Source of the DNA: an uncultured Chloroflexia bacterium
Lineage (GTDB): Bacteria > Chloroflexota > Limnocylindria > Limnocylindrales > CSP1-4
DNA: 64,000 nt
Assembly: GCA_963712745.1 (NCBI GenBank)
Contig: CAVQJC010000020.1
Location: forward strand, 96,001-160,000
Direction: 5' to 3'
Shown here: in pieces, positions 30,250-46,327 of the stretch
Numbering within the stretch: position 1 is the first letter of the stretch
How the letters are laid out: the number at the start of each line of letters is the position of its first letter
Notes under the pieces: model-generated
Seen by the model: only the letters and a program-made list of their open reading frames with translations
Told to the model about the DNA's origin: nothing
Database searches by the model: none
Position numbers and translations under genes: made by a program

Positions 30250-30348
30250 GGCTCCAGCATAATCGGCTGGACGCTGCTCGTGGCGCGAGCGTCCGCACGG
30301 GCCACCCCGACCCGACCGCGCGGGCGCGCTTGGGCCTACCATGGGCCG

Positions 30349-30633
30349 ATGCTGCAGCAGGATGGATCGATACGTATCGCCTGGCAGGCCGACGGCTTCG
30401 AGGCCATCTTCGTGCGTGCACGCTTCCGGCCGGCGCCCGAGCTGGCGGACTTCGCCAGGGGCGTGGCCGACGTGGCCTTGCTGGAACGCTCGTTGCCGGA
30501 CCTGCGCACCGCCCTGCGCAAGCGATACCCGGGCGCATTCGATCTCCTCACCGACGAACCGGCCTCGGCCCCATGGCGCGTGATCGTCAGCTTCCATCCA
30601 CCACGCGGGGAGCCCAACCCGGACCCATGGTGA
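30349..30633 (+). CDS. Hypothetical protein (94 aa)
   Basis: TACCAT-N6-ATG, typical codon use, overlaps the next start. Confidence 0.65.
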   Translation: MLQQDGSIRIAWQADGFEAIFVRARFRPAPELADFARGVADVALLERSLPDLRTALRKRYPGAFDLLTDEPASAPWRVIVSFHPPRGEPNPDPW

Positions 30634-31724
30634 GCACGCCAAGGATGCTTGAGATCACCGAGCCGACAGGCGCCTTCGAGCGCATCGAGTCCTACCTGCG
30701 CGAGGCCGGCTTCTTCGTGACCGGCACCGCTGGTCTGCCCGCGGGCCGCGACGCTCGCTGGGCCGATGTCTACCTCGGTTATGCCCTGTCCGAGCCCATG
30801 CGGCGGTCCGGGCGAGCCCGACGGCCGGAGCCAGCCGAGCTGCCGGTGGCGGCCGTGCAGCTGTACGAGGCTGGGGAAGCGCCCGCGACAGTGGGCCCGT
30901 TCGAAGTGGGCGCCTGGGAACCGACCTGGCCGGCTGCCGACTACGCGCGGGCGGTGTCTGCCGCACGCGAGGCCATCGCCGCCGGCGAGGTCTACCAGGT
31001 CAATCTGGTGCAGCATCTCTCGGCTCCGTTCGGCGGTGATGCGGCGGGCCTCGCGGTCGCCCTGGCGCCCCTCGCTCCGCTCCACCCACGGATGCTGTCC
31101 GGCGACGGCTGGTCGATCGTGTCAGCCTCCCCGGAGCTCTTCCTGGCACGCCGTGGCGATCGTCTCCGCACGATGCCCATCAAGGGCACCCGGCCCAGCG
31201 GTGACGCAGCGGGCCTGCGCGACTCGGTCAAGGACGCCGCGGAGCACGTCATGATCGTCGACCTCGAGCGCAACGACCTGGGGCGCATCTGCCTGCCCGG
31301 TAGCGTCGCCTGGCCGGAGCTGATGCAGGCGCGGCAGATGGCCGGCGTCGAGCACCTCGTCTCGTGCGTCGAGGGCACCATCCGCCACGGGATCGGCTGG
31401 GCCGACGCCATGGCCGCCCTGTTCCCCGGTGGCTCGGTCACCGGCGCTCCCAAGATCGCCGCGCTCGACCACATCAACGCGCTCGAACCGGTCGGCCGCG
31501 GGGCGTCCATGGGCGCGCTCGGCAGGGTCTGGCCGAACGGCGACTTCGAGCTGGCCTTGACCATCCGCACCTTCGCGGTCGCGGGCGACCGTATCCACCT
31601 CTGGGTCGGTGGCGGCGTGGTCTGGGACTCGGACCCCGGCGCCGAGGTCGAGGAGTCGTGGGTCAAGGCTCGCCCGCTGCTGGAGGCCATCCGCACGGCC
31701 TCGCCCGCCCCTCTCGCCGCATGA
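30627..31724 (+). CDS. pabB: Chorismate-binding protein (PabB/TrpE-like)
   Basis: GEVYQVNL, ASPELF, PIKGT, EHVMIVDLERNDL, FPGGSVTGAPK. Confidence 0.85.
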   Translation: MVSTPRMLEITEPTGAFERIESYLREAGFFVTGTAGLPAGRDARWADVYLGYALSEPMRRSGRARRPEPAELPVAAVQLYEAGEAPATVGPFEVGAWEPTWPAADYARAVSAAREAIAAGEVYQVNLVQHLSAPFGGDAAGLAVALAPLAPLHPRMLSGDGWSIVSASPELFLARRGDRLRTMPIKGTRPSGDAAGLRDSVKDAAEHVMIVDLERNDLGRICLPGSVAWPELMQARQMAGVEHLVSCVEGTIRHGIGWADAMAALFPGGSVTGAPKIAALDHINALEPVGRGASMGALGRVWPNGDFELALTIRTFAVAGDRIHLWVGGGVVWDSDPGAEVEESWVKARPLLEAIRTASPAPLAA

Positions 31725-32584
31725 AACCCGACCTGACGCCGCTCGCGGTCGGCGTGCTCGGACGCGGCGTGGTGGACCCCGAGGTTCCGGTCATCCACGC
31801 CGACGATGCCGGTCTCCTGCGAGGGCTGGCGGCCTTCGAGACCGTGCGCGTCTACGGCGGTCGACCGTTCGCCATGTCGGAGCACCTCGATCGACTCCGC
31901 CAGTCGGCCCTGCGGATGCAGCTCGAGGCACCCGACACCGCCGGTCTCGAACGGCTTGCCGGCGAGGTCATCGAGGCCGCGGGTGCCACCGACTGCGCCA
32001 TCCGGCTGACCGTCACCGGCGGTCGTCCCGGCGCAGGACCCGTGTCGATGGTCGTGGTCCTGCCCGTCGCGCTGGACCTCGAGGACGTGCGCGCCGCAGG
32101 TATCGCCGCAGTCTCGCTGCAGCTGGGGACCGATCCGCGGCTGCGCAGGGACGCGCCCTGGCTGCTCGACGGAGTGAAGTCGACCTCGTACGCGGTGAAC
32201 ATGGCCGCTTTCGACGAGGCTCGCCGTCGGGGTGCGCAGGACGCTGTCTTCATCGCCGCTGATGGCTCCGTGCTCGAGGGGCCGGTCACCAACGTGTGGT
32301 GGCGGCGCGGGAGCTCGCTCTTCACCCCCGCGATCGACCTCGGCATCCTGGCCGGCGTGACCCGGGCCTATGTCATCCGCATCGCCGACGAGCTCGGCTA
32401 TGGCGTGTCCGAAGGCTGGTTCCCACTGGCCGAGATGGCCGCCGCCGACGAGGCCTTCAGCTCGTCATCGGTGCGCGAGATCATGCCTATCGTGCGGCTG
32501 GACGGCGAGCCCGTCGGCGACGGCAGGCCGGGCGAGGCTGCGCGGGCACTGCAGCAGGGTCTGCGGCGGGCTGCCCACGCGTAG
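31721..32584 (+). CDS. Class IV aminotransferase (PabC/ADC lyase-like)
   Basis: FETVR, HLDRL, VKSTSY, EGPVTN, GILAGVTR. Confidence 0.88.
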   Translation: MKPDLTPLAVGVLGRGVVDPEVPVIHADDAGLLRGLAAFETVRVYGGRPFAMSEHLDRLRQSALRMQLEAPDTAGLERLAGEVIEAAGATDCAIRLTVTGGRPGAGPVSMVVVLPVALDLEDVRAAGIAAVSLQLGTDPRLRRDAPWLLDGVKSTSYAVNMAAFDEARRRGAQDAVFIAADGSVLEGPVTNVWWRRGSSLFTPAIDLGILAGVTRAYVIRIADELGYGVSEGWFPLAEMAAADEAFSSSSVREIMPIVRLDGEPVGDGRPGEAARALQQGLRRAAHA

Positions 32585-32591
32585 CGGGGAA

Positions 32592-32862
32592 TCACAAGAC
32601 CCACACTCCGTGCGTGGGTCCTAGGTCATCCGGTTCGCGCATCACAGGGCCCGCGCAGTCGCACACGACCCCAGTCGCGCGGATCAGCCGGCGCGAGTAT
32701 CAGATGAGATGTTGCCCGCTCGGGGCCTGGTCAGAAGGTTGCTCATCCCGCGCGATCCATCCGCTGTCTGCGGCAGCGCCCACGACCTCTCCGAGGCCTT
32801 GGGGCTCCGATTATTCCGGACCTGCCGGTTGCGGAGATCGACCATTCGATCCGAGTACCTCC
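32592..32862 (-). ncRNA. Candidate structured ncRNA (about 270 nt), family unassigned
   Basis: TTCCCT-N17-TACAGT promoter (32897-32869), nested long-range helices and a terminal hairpin, in an otherwise gene-free interval between convergent genes. Confidence 0.5.
32598..32620. terminator. Hairpin terminator
   Basis: GACCCAC...GTGGGTC stem, followed on the minus strand by TTGTGATT. Confidence 0.55.
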
Positions 32863-32919
32863 AGCCCGACTGTACTCCTTGGCGGCGGCGGAGGGAAGCC
32901 CCTTTGGTGAGACGCGGTC

Positions 32920-33531
32920 TCAGGCCCTCGGCGGCTCCTCGGTGTCGCCCGGCTGGAAGCTGCCGCCCTCGGCCTTGAGCTTGGCCTTGTAGGCCCGCTT
33001 CTTGTCCTGATAGGCCGCGAGCGCCTCTGCCGAGTCGACATCGGCCAGCGTGGGGTAGCCCGGCATGACCTCGGCAAGTCCGTCGAGCTGCAATCCGAAC
33101 CGTCGGCCCAGGATGGCCAACAGCGCCTTGGCCTTCATCTCGCCGATACCGGGCAGGGCCAGCAGGCGCCGCTCGAGGTCCGGCCCGTCGACCGCCTCGG
33201 TCCAGATGCGGGCGGCATCGCCTGCATAGGTCTCGGCGATCGCCGCGCAGAACGCCTGGGTCCGCTTGGCCATATTGCCCGGAAAGCGATGCAGGGCTGG
33301 CCGCTCGCGAAAGGCCGCTTCGAGGTCGCCCGGGTCCATGGCCGCGATGTCGCCGGCGGTCAGCGTGCCGATCCGTCGGCGCAGCTCGAGCGGACCGGCA
33401 AAGGCCTTCTGGACACTCACCTGCTGGTCGAGCACGAAGCCGATGAGCAAGGCCATCGGGTCGCTGGCGAGGAGGGCATCGGCCTCGGGGTCGCCGGTGA
33501 AGGGCAGCATGTCGGGTGGCATGGCATTCAT
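32920..33531 (-). CDS. HhH-GPD-type base excision repair protein
   Basis: LLIGFVLDQQV, PALHRFPGNMA, LPGIGEMKA, TLADVDS; TACCCT-N6-ATG. Confidence 0.88.
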   Translation of the reverse strand: MNAMPPDMLPFTGDPEADALLASDPMALLIGFVLDQQVSVQKAFAGPLELRRRIGTLTAGDIAAMDPGDLEAAFRERPALHRFPGNMAKRTQAFCAAIAETYAGDAARIWTEAVDGPDLERRLLALPGIGEMKAKALLAILGRRFGLQLDGLAEVMPGYPTLADVDSAEALAAYQDKKRAYKAKLKAEGGSFQPGDTEEPPRA

Positions 33532-33770
33532 GGCGGCAGGGTACCCTGACCATCGTTCGAGGGCACATTCGAACAGATGCGCTACACTGCCTGTACATCC
33601 CGAAAGCCGCGCGCGGTCGAGCACCGGAGAACCCGGCCTGCTCCCGCTGACGCGAGCCGACCAACGATCATCCGCTCCCCGCGACGGGATGCGTCGAGCG
33701 GAACACACCACTCAGGCCTGGCCCGAGCGCACCTGCGAGGTCGCGCCGCCGGCCGAAAGGGATACCCACC

Positions 33771-33995
33771 ATGCTTTCACGAGCACCTCACACATCACTC
33801 CACATCAGTCGGCGGAGCCACGCTCAGCGGCGCCTCCGCCGGGCCGCGACCCATCGCCTCTTCTGCAGCACCAACGGCTGCACCACGTTCATGGTCACTG
33901 CCGACGATGGACGCAGCGCCACCTGCCCGGTCTGCGGCCTCGAGCGCAAGCTGCGCCCGCAGGGGGAAGGTGCGGTCGCCGCACGCGCCCACTGA
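33771..33995 (+). CDS. Small basic Zn-ribbon-like protein
   Basis: CSTNGC and CPVC; AAAGGGA RBS. Confidence 0.6.
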   Translation: MLSRAPHTSLHISRRSHAQRRLRRAATHRLFCSTNGCTTFMVTADDGRSATCPVCGLERKLRPQGEGAVAARAH

Positions 33996-34048
33996 CCCCA
34001 GGCCGCCGGTATGTGACAGGCCCGGGCCCAGCGTGCGAGCATCCGCGC

Positions 34049-34546
34049 GTGGAACGCTCGCGTGAACCGACCAGGGAGTCGCTCGTCCGGAGGGACGCCG
34101 AGGGTGCGATGCGAACAGCTCCGTCCTGGGAGACGTTGACCGAGCGCCTCATCCGCGAGGCCCAGGCTGACGGGCACTTCGACGACCTGCCTGGCCACGG
34201 CCGACCGCTCAAGCTCGACGACGTCCACTTCGCGGGGGAAATGGCCCTGGCGCACCATTTGCTGCACAACGCCGGTGTCGCACCCCCTTGGATCGAGACG
34301 GACAAGGAAGCCAGGGGCGCACTCGCCGCCATCGAAGCGTTGTTGGTGCGCGCACGGGGATCTGGGCCAGCCTCGGCCGCTCGCCTCGGCGCGGAGCTGG
34401 AGGCGTTCGCCGACGCTCACGACGAGGCCGCCGACCGCCTGGAGCGACTGGCTCCGACCATCCGGCAGCACCGCACCCAGCTCGATCGCCCTCGCCTGCG
34501 GCGCCGGCTCGAGATGGCCCTGGCCACTGAGCGCGGCCCGTCTTGA
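34049..34546 (+). CDS. DUF1992 / DnaJ-related domain protein
   Basis: ERLIREAQADGHFDDLPGHGRPL and GVAPPWI; start uncertain (34049 or 34109). Confidence 0.8.
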   Translation: MERSREPTRESLVRRDAEGAMRTAPSWETLTERLIREAQADGHFDDLPGHGRPLKLDDVHFAGEMALAHHLLHNAGVAPPWIETDKEARGALAAIEALLVRARGSGPASAARLGAELEAFADAHDEAADRLERLAPTIRQHRTQLDRPRLRRRLEMALATERGPS

Positions 34547-34926
34547 CCGAGAACGTGAGGCGGCCGGAGTCGCAGATGGAAGACGACCTCGTCGCCTGGG
34601 GCAAGGTCATCCGACTCGAGACTATCGGCCGTCGCACTGGGTCGACTCGCTCGGTCACGGTCGGATTCGTCCAGGAGCCGGCTGGTTCGCTCCTGCTGGC
34701 CGCCGGTTCGAAGGACGCGAGCTGGTCGGCCAACCTGCGCGCCGAGCCCCGCTGCCAGGCCACCCTCGCAGGACGGCGCCGGTCCTACGTGGCCGTCCCG
34801 CTCTCCGGAGCCGAGCGCCAGGCGGCGGTGGCAGCCCTCATCCTGAAGTACGGCACGCCGGCCGAGCGCCTGGGGAACGGCCCGGTGTTTCGCCTGCAAA
34901 CTTCGGACATCGACACCGACAGCTGA
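34543..34926 (+). CDS. Deazaflavin (F420)-dependent nitroreductase family protein
   Basis: LETIGRRTG and WSANLRAEP; PVFRL. Confidence 0.8.
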   Translation: MTENVRRPESQMEDDLVAWGKVIRLETIGRRTGSTRSVTVGFVQEPAGSLLLAAGSKDASWSANLRAEPRCQATLAGRRRSYVAVPLSGAERQAAVAALILKYGTPAERLGNGPVFRLQTSDIDTDS

Positions 34927-35113
34927 TCGGCCACGTGGCTAAGTACCGATCGCGGTCGCAACGTCTACACTGGCACCATCGCAAGAACGCGCTCTCGTTG
35001 ATTCCTGTCGCGGCACCTCCGGGTCGGTGCCCTGCGCGATACGCGCTGATACGAATGTGACCGCCCTGGACCTGGCCCTGAGGGTGGGCGGCACGACGAC
35101 AGCAAGGATCCGC

Positions 35114-45111: not shown

Positions 45112-46222
45112 ACTGAGTGATCAGACTGGTCACCGAGCCGGGCCACCGGGTGAGCACTGAGTACAGCCGGACCCTCCGAGTCCCAGGGCTAGAGCGTGCC
45201 CCCGGTGGTCGGCGAGGACGGTCGAGATGGCTGCTGGGGTGGCGTGCCGATCGAGCACTGGTCCATCAGCTCGCCGCGACCCTCCTCCTGCGGCTCCGCA
45301 CGAGCGAAGGGAGGACGGGACGATGATCTTCGTCGGCATCGACTGGGCCGAGGCGCACCACGACGTGTGCGTGCTCGACGACCGCGGGGAGGTGCTGGCC
45401 ACGCGGCGGGTCTCCGAAGGCCTCGAGGGCGTGGCCCGGATGCACGCCCTCTTCGGCGAGCATGCCGACGAGCCCGAGGCGGTGATCGTCGGCATCGAGA
45501 CCGACCGGGGCCTGCTCGTCACCGCCCTGCTCGCGGCCGGCTATACGGTCCACGCGGTCAACCCCCTCGCCGCTTCCCGCTACCGGGAGCGCCACACGGC
45601 GAGTCGGGCCAAGCCCGACCGCGGCGATGCTCATGTCCTCGCCGATCTCGTGCGCACGGACCGTCACCACCATCGGGTCGTCGCTCCCGACAGCGAGCTG
45701 CACGGCGCCATCAAGGTCCTCGCCCGCAGCCATCAGAACCTCGTCTGGACCCGGCAGCGCCAGACCAGCGCGCTGCGCAGCGCCTTGCGCGAGTACTACC
45801 CCGGAGCCCTCGCCGCCTTCGAGGAGCTCGCCCATCCTGATGCGCTCGCGGTGCTGAGGGTGGCGCCCGACCCCGAACGAGGACGACGGCTCAGCGAAGC
45901 CCGCATCGTCTCGCTCCTGCGGCGGGCTGGCCGGCAGCGCAACCTCGAGCGACGGGCTCGCGAGATCCGTTCGGCGCTGCAGGTCCCGCAGCTGGCGGCG
46001 CCAGCGCTGGTGGTTGAGGCCCAGGCGGCCAACGCGGTCGCGCTCGTGGCGGTCATCGCCACGCTGAACGAGCAGATAACCCGGCTCGAGGCCGAGCTCG
46101 TCGACGCCTTCGGTCGACACCCGGACGCCGAGATCCTACGAGGTCTGCCCGGACTGGGCGACTTCCTCGGCGCCCGGGTGCTCGCGGAGTTCGGGGATGC
46201 CCCCGACCGCTATGCCGATGCT
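45112..46222 (+). mobile_element. IS110-family element, 3'-truncated
   Basis: About 210-nt non-coding left end followed by a DEDD transposase; similarity to the family ends near 46220. Ends are approximate. Confidence 0.8.
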
Positions 46223-46327
46223 AGCCCGCCGTCGCTTCGCTGCCCCTCGAGCTCGCGCACGAAGGCCGCGACATGGTCGAGCGCGTCGTTGAGCACCGGC
46301 TTGAGGCTATGGCCGACCTTGGGGTAG
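45323..46327 (+). pseudogene. IS110 transposase lacking most of the C-terminal Tnp domain
   Basis: FVGIDWAEAHHDV, GIETDRG, KPDRGDA, LPGLG...ARVLAEFGD...RYAD, then runs into the antisense strand of the neighbouring gene. Confidence 0.8.

Follow-up and report, generated by a model that had tools for sequence, protein, structure and literature searches.

A predicted small-protein gene with a conserved RNA fold in its first codons, found between two convergent genes of an uncultured Limnocylindria bacterium

What lies in the gap between two convergent genes of an uncultured Chloroflexia bacterium? The stretch analysed here, called the window, comprises 64,000 nucleotides (nt) of contig CAVQJC010000020.1 (assembly GCA_963712745.1, positions 96,001 to 160,000). 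The gap is bounded by a pabC-like gene of the class-IV aminotransferases (closest to aminodeoxychorismate lyase), which ends at 32584 on the plus strand, and by an HhH-GPD gene (TIGR03252 match, 186.9 bits), which ends at 32920 on the minus strand. A sequence-only reading had described this convergent arrangement correctly and had proposed an unannotated structured RNA gene of about 270 nt, resembling the 6S and Ms1 RNAs, with a 53-codon open reading frame (ORF) as the alternative. The ORF is now the main reading because conservation follows its codon structure: the locus is probably a new, lineage-restricted, stand-alone small-protein gene, whose structured mRNA carries its fold in the first 37 codons.

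The two features on which this reading rests are the following.

32684–32845, minus strand: ORF of 53 codons plus TGA (ATG 32845–32843, stop 32686–32684), open in 17 of 18 genus-level relatives.
32687–32776, minus strand: peptide core, residues 24–53, LPxTADxSxGxSNLxTxPRAGNISSDTRAG, with 14 invariant columns among 44 proteins.

In related genomes the region is conserved more strongly than its flanks, and six more distant relatives can be aligned to it as DNA only over 32682–32767 and not over the flanking genes. Within the genus set, column entropy in the second half of the ORF is 0.38, 0.43 and 0.67 at codon positions 1, 2 and 3, respectively; nine codons there have positions 1 and 2 fixed and position 3 variable. 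For the wider family, a back-translated peptide scan of species genomes gave 106 stretches, 103 of which were confirmed, and the best 80 are the family loci used below. A strict peptide pattern was passed by 71 of these 80 (nine were dropped); together with the 18 genus loci they make 78 unique cores. Ser47 is invariant across the cores although six codons encode it (AGC 48, TCA 17, TCG 9, TCC 2, AGT 1, TCT 1), all four CGN codons are in use for Arg42, and four codons are used for Thr27. The invariance of Ser47, Thr27, Asp29 and Gly33 is not imposed by the peptide pattern. Synonymous variant codons number 63 in sense frame 0, 16 and 10 in the other sense frames and 15–53 in the antisense frames. 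Stops tell the same frames apart, occurring in one of 77 sequences in frame 0 versus 11–53 of 77 in the others.

A model of the RNA, described below, ends at the Asn-Leu codons, so that the peptide downstream of it can be checked free of peptide-pattern bias. All 20 loci retrieved from whole genomes with this model alone encode PR[AST]GN[IVY]S[STC]D[TM]RAG in frame. In its 55 full-length matches, the first ATG, GTG or TTG lying 5–12 nt past GAGGU is in frame with the core every time, with zero in-frame stops and 34–40 codons preceding the Asn. Conservation follows the codons of the ORF, as it would in a small-protein gene; this is the pattern that the sequence-only reading had itself named as speaking against an RNA gene. 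The C-terminal 27–30 residues (TADxSxGxSNLxTxPRAGNISSDTRAG) are held by strong purifying selection.

The predicted product is a basic protein of 53 residues, its N-terminal half being Arg-rich and variable. Public gene calls contain 43 small homologues, all of them unnamed or 'hypothetical' and free of Pfam domains. A profile search of 1.84 billion protein representatives returned 51 matches; 48 are 29–110 residues long, and the three longer proteins match over short stretches only, some of them repeated. Pfam, NCBIfam, PADLOC and PHROGs gave no match for the small protein, nor did a profile search of the PDB sequences, and the ESM Atlas held no usable match. Literature searches turned up no paper on this element among those listed. 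Predicting a complex of the small protein with its HhH-GPD neighbour scored 0.00, which is no answer and counts neither way.

Does the RNA carry information of its own? A conserved domain occupies the 5' part of the transcript, and its elements are listed below.

32732–32863, minus strand: 5' RNA domain with helices P1–P5, spanning the ribosome-binding site and codons 1–37.
32735–32739, minus strand: ACCUU, 3' strand of P1, within codons Asn36–Leu37 and complementary to GAGGU.
32831–32835, minus strand: UCCGC, 5' strand of P2, pairing with GCGGA at 32760–32764 (codons Ala28–Asp29); 80% of cells paired.
32816–32828, minus strand: P3 hairpin, CCGG-CAGGU-CCGG; three of four pairs changed on both sides, 71.4% of cells paired.
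32772–32808, minus strand: P4/P5 arm, an irregular hairpin in codons 13–25; both-side changes in eight of nine P4 pairs and six of six P5 pairs.

The structure was drawn with RNAalifold and by inspection from the same sequences that enter the test, which favours it, and the following figures should be read accordingly: in a MAFFT alignment that was not fitted to the structure, 86.4% of cells are paired versus 80.6±0.8 in shuffled alignments (0 of 500 as high) and 36–47% in slid controls, with 32 double-change cells versus 12.7±2.7 shuffled. The covariance model R1 matches at full length in 55 of 81 sources, namely the window and 54 of the 80 family loci. In the resulting fitted alignment of 55 sequences the contrast widens: 82.9% of cells are paired versus 69.7±0.7 shuffled and 32–47% slid, double-change cells number 200 versus 72.5±7.2 (a level that no shuffle out of 500 reaches), and covariation scores 0.339 versus 0.141 shuffled and at most 0.104 slid.

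Helices P2 to P5 of the predicted domain covary. The fold is branched, P2 closing over the P3 hairpin and the long P4/P5 arm, and some compensatory changes fall at wobble positions. In P2, one pair covaries (CG 45, GC 5) between the Ala28 wobble position and its partner. The position of P3 is taken in other clades by different stems, for instance CCCC..GGGG, as judged by eye. Folded in isolation, the domain recovers P1 and P4/P5 in its minimum-free-energy (MFE) structure. P1 is paired in 98.2% of cells in the 55 sequences, with variants only from G-C to G-U or from A-U to G-U. The wobble base of Leu37, inside its 3' strand, is C in 64, U in 13 and a purine in none of 77 Leu codons; CTY makes up 0.49 of the Leu codons in three flanking genes, and CTG and TTG are used at other Leu positions of the ORF. 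An extra hairpin in the PRAG codons, GCCC-CGNGC-GGGC, is 94% paired and shows one wobble-to-wobble compensation (GC 66, CG 5).

Is the locus transcribed on its own? Its putative signals, all on the minus strand, are these.

32892–32897, minus strand: TTCCCT, a −35-like hexamer matching TTGACA at three of six positions.
32869–32874, minus strand: TACAGT (TANNNT), the −10 hexamer; T, A and last T invariant in 18 of 18 genus-level relatives.
32857–32862, minus strand: GGAGGT, Shine-Dalgarno (SD) sequence and also the 5' strand of P1; GAGGT invariant in 18 of 18 relatives.
32595–32623, minus strand: terminator hairpin followed by UGAUUCC; ΔG −19.2 kcal/mol, z −2.97, none of 200 shuffles as stable.

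The promoter and the terminator hairpin that the sequence-only reading had pointed out are in place, with a 17-nt spacer between TTCCCT and TACAGT. The −35 position reads TTCCAT, TTCACA, TTGCCA or TTGACT in relatives (by eye, from the alignment). TANNNT recurs in all 55 family-level matches and stands 7–13 nt 5' of GAGG in 50 of them; from this spacing the transcript should begin near 32862, with the SD GGAGGT itself or no more than about 1 nt ahead of it, and P1 would therefore involve the extreme 5' end of the RNA. All 18 genus-level relatives preserve the terminator stem, and 33 of the 80 family loci have its motif. The remaining loci carry other GC-rich stems followed by a U-rich tail (by eye), and hairpins follow the ORF in all clades. 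A simple scan for consensus promoters and terminators flagged neither at the locus. In the 3' untranslated region (UTR; 32621–32683, minus strand) a further GC-rich hairpin comes right behind the ORF, or overlaps its variable tail, with clade-specific sequences (by eye).

The locus persists where its neighbours differ, which argues for an independent unit. By blastp of called ORFs, 29 of the 80 family loci have an HhH-GPD gene as neighbour, and by tblastn 33; ORF calling is noisy in these high-G+C loci, and our neighbour counts rest on the blastp tally. Among the 29, the HhH-GPD gene lies upstream or overlapping on the same strand in eight and on the opposite strand in 19, and downstream in two; no HhH-GPD gene occurs within 2.5 kb in 51 of 80. 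Other clades have Peptidase_M14/SIS, AFOR or DUF2089/SHOCT/DUF4097 neighbours, and comparing the 80 loci revealed no neighbour common to all. We read the locus as an unannotated, stand-alone transcription unit of the minus strand with its own predicted promoter and terminator.

Three observations concern the neighbours themselves. The retention of HhH-GPD genes through tandem, divergent and downstream layouts may reflect a link or old synteny; in the window this gene probably starts at ATG 33531 (minus strand). On the other side, within 30330–32584 (plus strand), the longest PabC-like ORF opens at 31364 and shares 361 nt with the longest PabB-like ORF, which runs to 31724. Because Pfam and NCBIfam matches in the PabC-like ORF begin near residue 131–157, its real start codon probably lies much further in, and the PabB-like and PabC-like genes would be adjacent.

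RNA from the locus is present in RNA libraries. Six RNA runs hold part of a 1.8-kb stretch around it, and in all four that we examined, from four studies, contigs cover 32664–32850. Over 180 nt in run X16 and 147 nt in X15 there are no differences, and over 144 nt in X17 there are 13; a zero-difference contig of 147–180 nt is found in three of the four runs. X18 holds two variants, at depths of 51 and 47; one of its contigs is joined to sequencing adapter at 32844, and another to unrelated sequence, presumably akin to 23S ribosomal RNA. The rest of the stretch is uncovered in X16 and X18, and some flank appears at similar low depth in X15 and X17. The promoter-proximal 12–19 nt, the 3' UTR and the flanks are uncovered in some runs, which is uninformative because Logan contigs break at strain variants. 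That contigs from four studies end at 32843–32850 is, at best, faint evidence for a 5' end close by.

How far does the gene reach? The protein profile detects it, one copy each, in 31 of the 60 genomes sampled from the window's Limnocylindria family and in none of 140 genomes from four other families of the class. With the RNA model, whose matches were filtered more strictly, it is recognised in 23 of 101 family genomes, this one and genome G282 (flagged as unpublished) included, or in 22 of 100 when G282 is set aside. By DNA search, 18 of 41 related genomes carry the region: this one and 17 of 24 further members of its genus; none of 16 small genomes of another family does.

Nearly all of the 80 family loci carry the labels Chloroflexota, Limnocylindria or Limnocylindrales. 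Five are labelled otherwise: Polarisedimenticolia (L045), Cellulomonas (L047), Binatia (L054), Deferrimicrobiaceae (L064) and Dormiibacterota (L090). The open frame of the small ORF in L047 differs at three of 70 residues from that of L046, which comes from a Chloroflexota metagenome-assembled genome (MAG) with the same isolate-name prefix. The five are likely mis-binned contigs.

Could the locus nonetheless be a non-coding RNA of the 6S/Ms1 type, which sequesters RNA polymerase and whose ORF arose by chance from high G+C? A length of about 270 nt and a promoter and terminator of its own would suit such an RNA, as would the failure to detect another 6S in this genome or in 30 relatives. The RF00013 search, which detects 6S in only five of 14 control genomes, is blank in this genome (84.6% complete) and in all 31 family genomes counting this one, 30 of which are at least 90% complete; the 6S of this lineage, if any, is thus unrecognised by the current model. 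At the locus itself, Rfam at gathering score gave no match, to 6S, Ms1, the signal recognition particle (SRP) RNA or any other family, and searching 32400–33100 at E up to 10 returned noise only (P37, E 5.1; WT1-AS_2, E 9.9). ARAGORN found neither transfer RNA nor transfer-messenger RNA in 31000–35000. The four pairs of complementary blocks proposed for a long irregular rod with a bubble do exist and are complementary. The 279-nt minus-strand fold, however, has an ordinary energy (MFE −121.7 versus −121.1±5.6 kcal/mol shuffled; z −0.10, 82 of 200 shuffles as good; plus strand of the same stretch, z +0.59). Across the 18 genus-level relatives, the 24 rod pairs are paired in 64.0% of cells versus 61.0±1.1 shuffled (nominally 2 of 500), and their covariation score of 0.096, versus 0.072 shuffled, is exceeded by the control slid by +2 (0.104). 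In the 78 ungapped codon-aligned relatives, GATGAG/CTCATC is paired in 46.4% (slid controls 32.5–47.6%) and GGATC/GATCC in 52.8% (slid 27.2–45.4%). The supported fold moreover joins the 5' end to position ~125 and not to the 3' end, the central bubble is absent, and the host belongs to the Chloroflexota and not to the actinobacteria, the hosts of Ms1. The fold energy, the failed slid controls, the blank Rfam search and the clear coding signature led us to reject the 6S/Ms1-type rod, and we regard a non-coding RNA of this kind as extremely improbable. A resemblance to SRP RNA, also suggested before, does not hold: RF00169 has no match here, and the genome's SRP RNA matches lie at full length on two other contigs (76.3 and 75.2 bits; G000 C1:344032–344131, L101, and C2:6709–6808, L102). 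Two SRP RNAs in one MAG with 5% estimated contamination may reflect a duplicate haplotype or a second organism.

One alternative makes the element no gene of its own but the long, structured 3' end of the HhH-GPD transcript, as UTR or terminator region. It fits the window's genus, where the element follows directly downstream of that gene on the same strand, and the 29 of 80 family loci in which such a gene is adjacent; yet a conserved −10 box separates the HhH-GPD stop from the SD, and in most family loci the gene is on the opposite strand, downstream or out of range, as counted above. Its variant, a leader peptide or attenuator for a neighbour, meets the fact that the window has no gene in the same direction beyond the terminator, where a convergent gene comes next; we hold both very unlikely. 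A type I toxin mRNA, in which fold-back blocks translation of a toxic peptide pending processing of the RNA, shares with our locus the small ORF, the compact stand-alone transcript and a possible sequestration of the SD by a distant complement within the transcript. Known type I toxins are mostly membrane peptides. The present peptide is hydrophilic, Arg-rich and devoid of any hydrophobic stretch, it occurs once per genome and without a PADLOC match, and a promoter scan, beyond which no search was made, gave no antisense partner, leaving this explanation scarcely credible. More weight attaches to a bifunctional RNA, one that is translated into the microprotein and whose 5' domain has a second, trans-acting role, exerted by base-pairing or protein binding; SgrS/SgrT and RNAIII/delta-haemolysin are RNAs of this sort. 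In such a case the RNA would be abundant, the branched domain would bind a cellular machine or the RNA's own basic peptide, the product would be a lineage-specific ribosome- or polymerase-associated microprotein, and fold and peptide would co-evolve in the same codons. The covarying fold sits in the part of the ORF whose peptide is not conserved; one metatranscriptome holds the locus at a depth of ~50 with its flanks unassembled, judged from contigs only; and the RNA polymerase regulators of a lineage in which Rfam recognises no 6S in 31 family genomes are themselves unrecognised. Against this, control in cis or stabilisation of the mRNA explains the structure equally well, and an element that only 31 of the 60 family genomes sampled carry, roughly one in two, is not a core regulator. 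We therefore rate a bifunctional RNA as unlikely, though it deserves to be kept in mind.

In the small-protein gene with a structured mRNA, which we prefer, a sigma-70-type promoter would start transcription near 32862, nearly at the SD. An AUG 11 nt after the SD would open the 53-codon ORF, and a 3' UTR of about 60 nt with the hairpin terminator would finish the transcript. The first 37 codons would double as RNA and fold into the branched domain, closed by pairing of the SD, at the 5' end of the RNA, with the Asn36–Leu37 codons. The closed form may limit ribosome entry and shield the 5' end, and a ribosome that does enter would unwind the anti-SD strand; the outcome would be a stable, abundant mRNA with gated translation. 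Gating of ribosome access and protection of the 5' end are, in our view, the most likely tasks of the fold. As for the protein, our best guess is that it binds a conserved nucleic-acid machine, for example the ribosome, and perhaps also controls its own mRNA.

Several points weigh against this picture. The frame is broken by two single-base insertions in one of the 18 genus-level relatives (L003), which may be a pseudogene or an assembly error, and the N-terminal half of the ORF is without a period-3 pattern in the genus set. The loci were partly picked by a peptide pattern, which makes PRAGN and D.RAG invariant by construction; the entropy figures of the genus set and the 20 loci retrieved with the RNA model escape this bias. 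A stop comes right after RAG in only 22 of the 78 cores, other cores extending a few residues beyond it, so the C-terminus is not fixed. AlphaFold2, run with 44 sequences, reached a predicted local distance difference test score (pLDDT) of 56.1 and a predicted template-modelling score (pTM) of 0.15, leaving no confident fold for a structure search. On the RNA side, model R1 missed 26 of the 80 family loci, and the isolated domain has a z of only −1.61, with 12 of 200 shuffles as good. P1 shows no covariation (zero double changes in the 55 sequences), and by our own estimate a 5-nt complement of the SD is expected by chance in a GC-rich RNA of 270 nt. The library contigs indicate presence only, neither strand, ends nor level, and the runs were picked for holding the stretch.

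Two side observations touch on these subjects. The genus-level relative with the broken frame (L003, G022:C9) has a further insertion before the start, and its RNA helices are intact despite the broken frame. Elsewhere in the window, the only Rfam match at gathering score is Ms_AS-4 at 46144–46225 (minus strand, 64.5 bits), antisense within an IS110-family transposase ORF at 45227–46327 (plus strand; DEDD_Tnp_IS110, E 1.8e-37); this model of an 'actinobacterial small RNA' probably recognises a conserved transposase segment here.

The earlier observation is thus partly confirmed and its interpretation partly supported: an unannotated, independent unit with a conserved structure did stand, but the unit appears to be coding and its supported fold is a different, branched one. 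For Limnocylindria, an uncultured lineage widespread in soil and sediment, the result means one more small-protein gene, family-wide and unannotated. It would offer a clean case of an RNA under two constraints, in which compensatory pair changes run through the wobble positions of translated codons. Should the closure of the SD by its complement prove functional, the coding sequence would contain its own compact translation gate. Hunting for RNA genes in high-G+C genomes calls for caution, as a promoter, a terminator and complementary blocks together mimicked 6S RNA where the conserved signal was a peptide.

How does the element compare with known systems? Like 6S RNA (RF00013) and Ms1, it is a small stand-alone RNA, a few hundred nt long and apparently abundant, that has a promoter and a terminator to itself. 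6S RNA binds the RNA polymerase holoenzyme and Ms1, an actinobacterial (mycobacterial) RNA, the core enzyme. Our element differs in matching no Rfam covariance model, in having no rod with a central bubble and in a 5' end predicted to pair internally and not with the 3' end; its peptide is under purifying selection, and it belongs to part of one family of Chloroflexota.

With the dual-function small RNAs it shares a short transcript combining a conserved small ORF with conserved RNA structure. SgrS/SgrT, RNAIII/hld and SR1/SR1P have known targets, and their regulatory segment is mostly distinct from the ORF; in our element the fold lies inside the first 37 codons of the ORF. The uncharacterised products of small ORFs, shorter than 60 residues, are close as well: 53 residues, missed or called 'hypothetical', lineage-restricted and with no predicted fold. 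What sets the present protein apart from them is a conservation unusually confined to a C-terminal core of 27–30 residues.

mRNAs with a sequestered ribosome-binding site include the leaders of autoregulated ribosomal proteins, RNA thermometers and hok-type fold-back mRNAs. As in these, the SD stands opposite a complementary strand that would close a structured domain, and the small basic product recalls many ribosomal proteins. Unlike in these, the anti-SD strand lies 120 nt downstream within conserved codons, the 5' UTR is almost nil, and the SD helix is without covariation; the gate, if it operates, would be built into the coding sequence that it controls.

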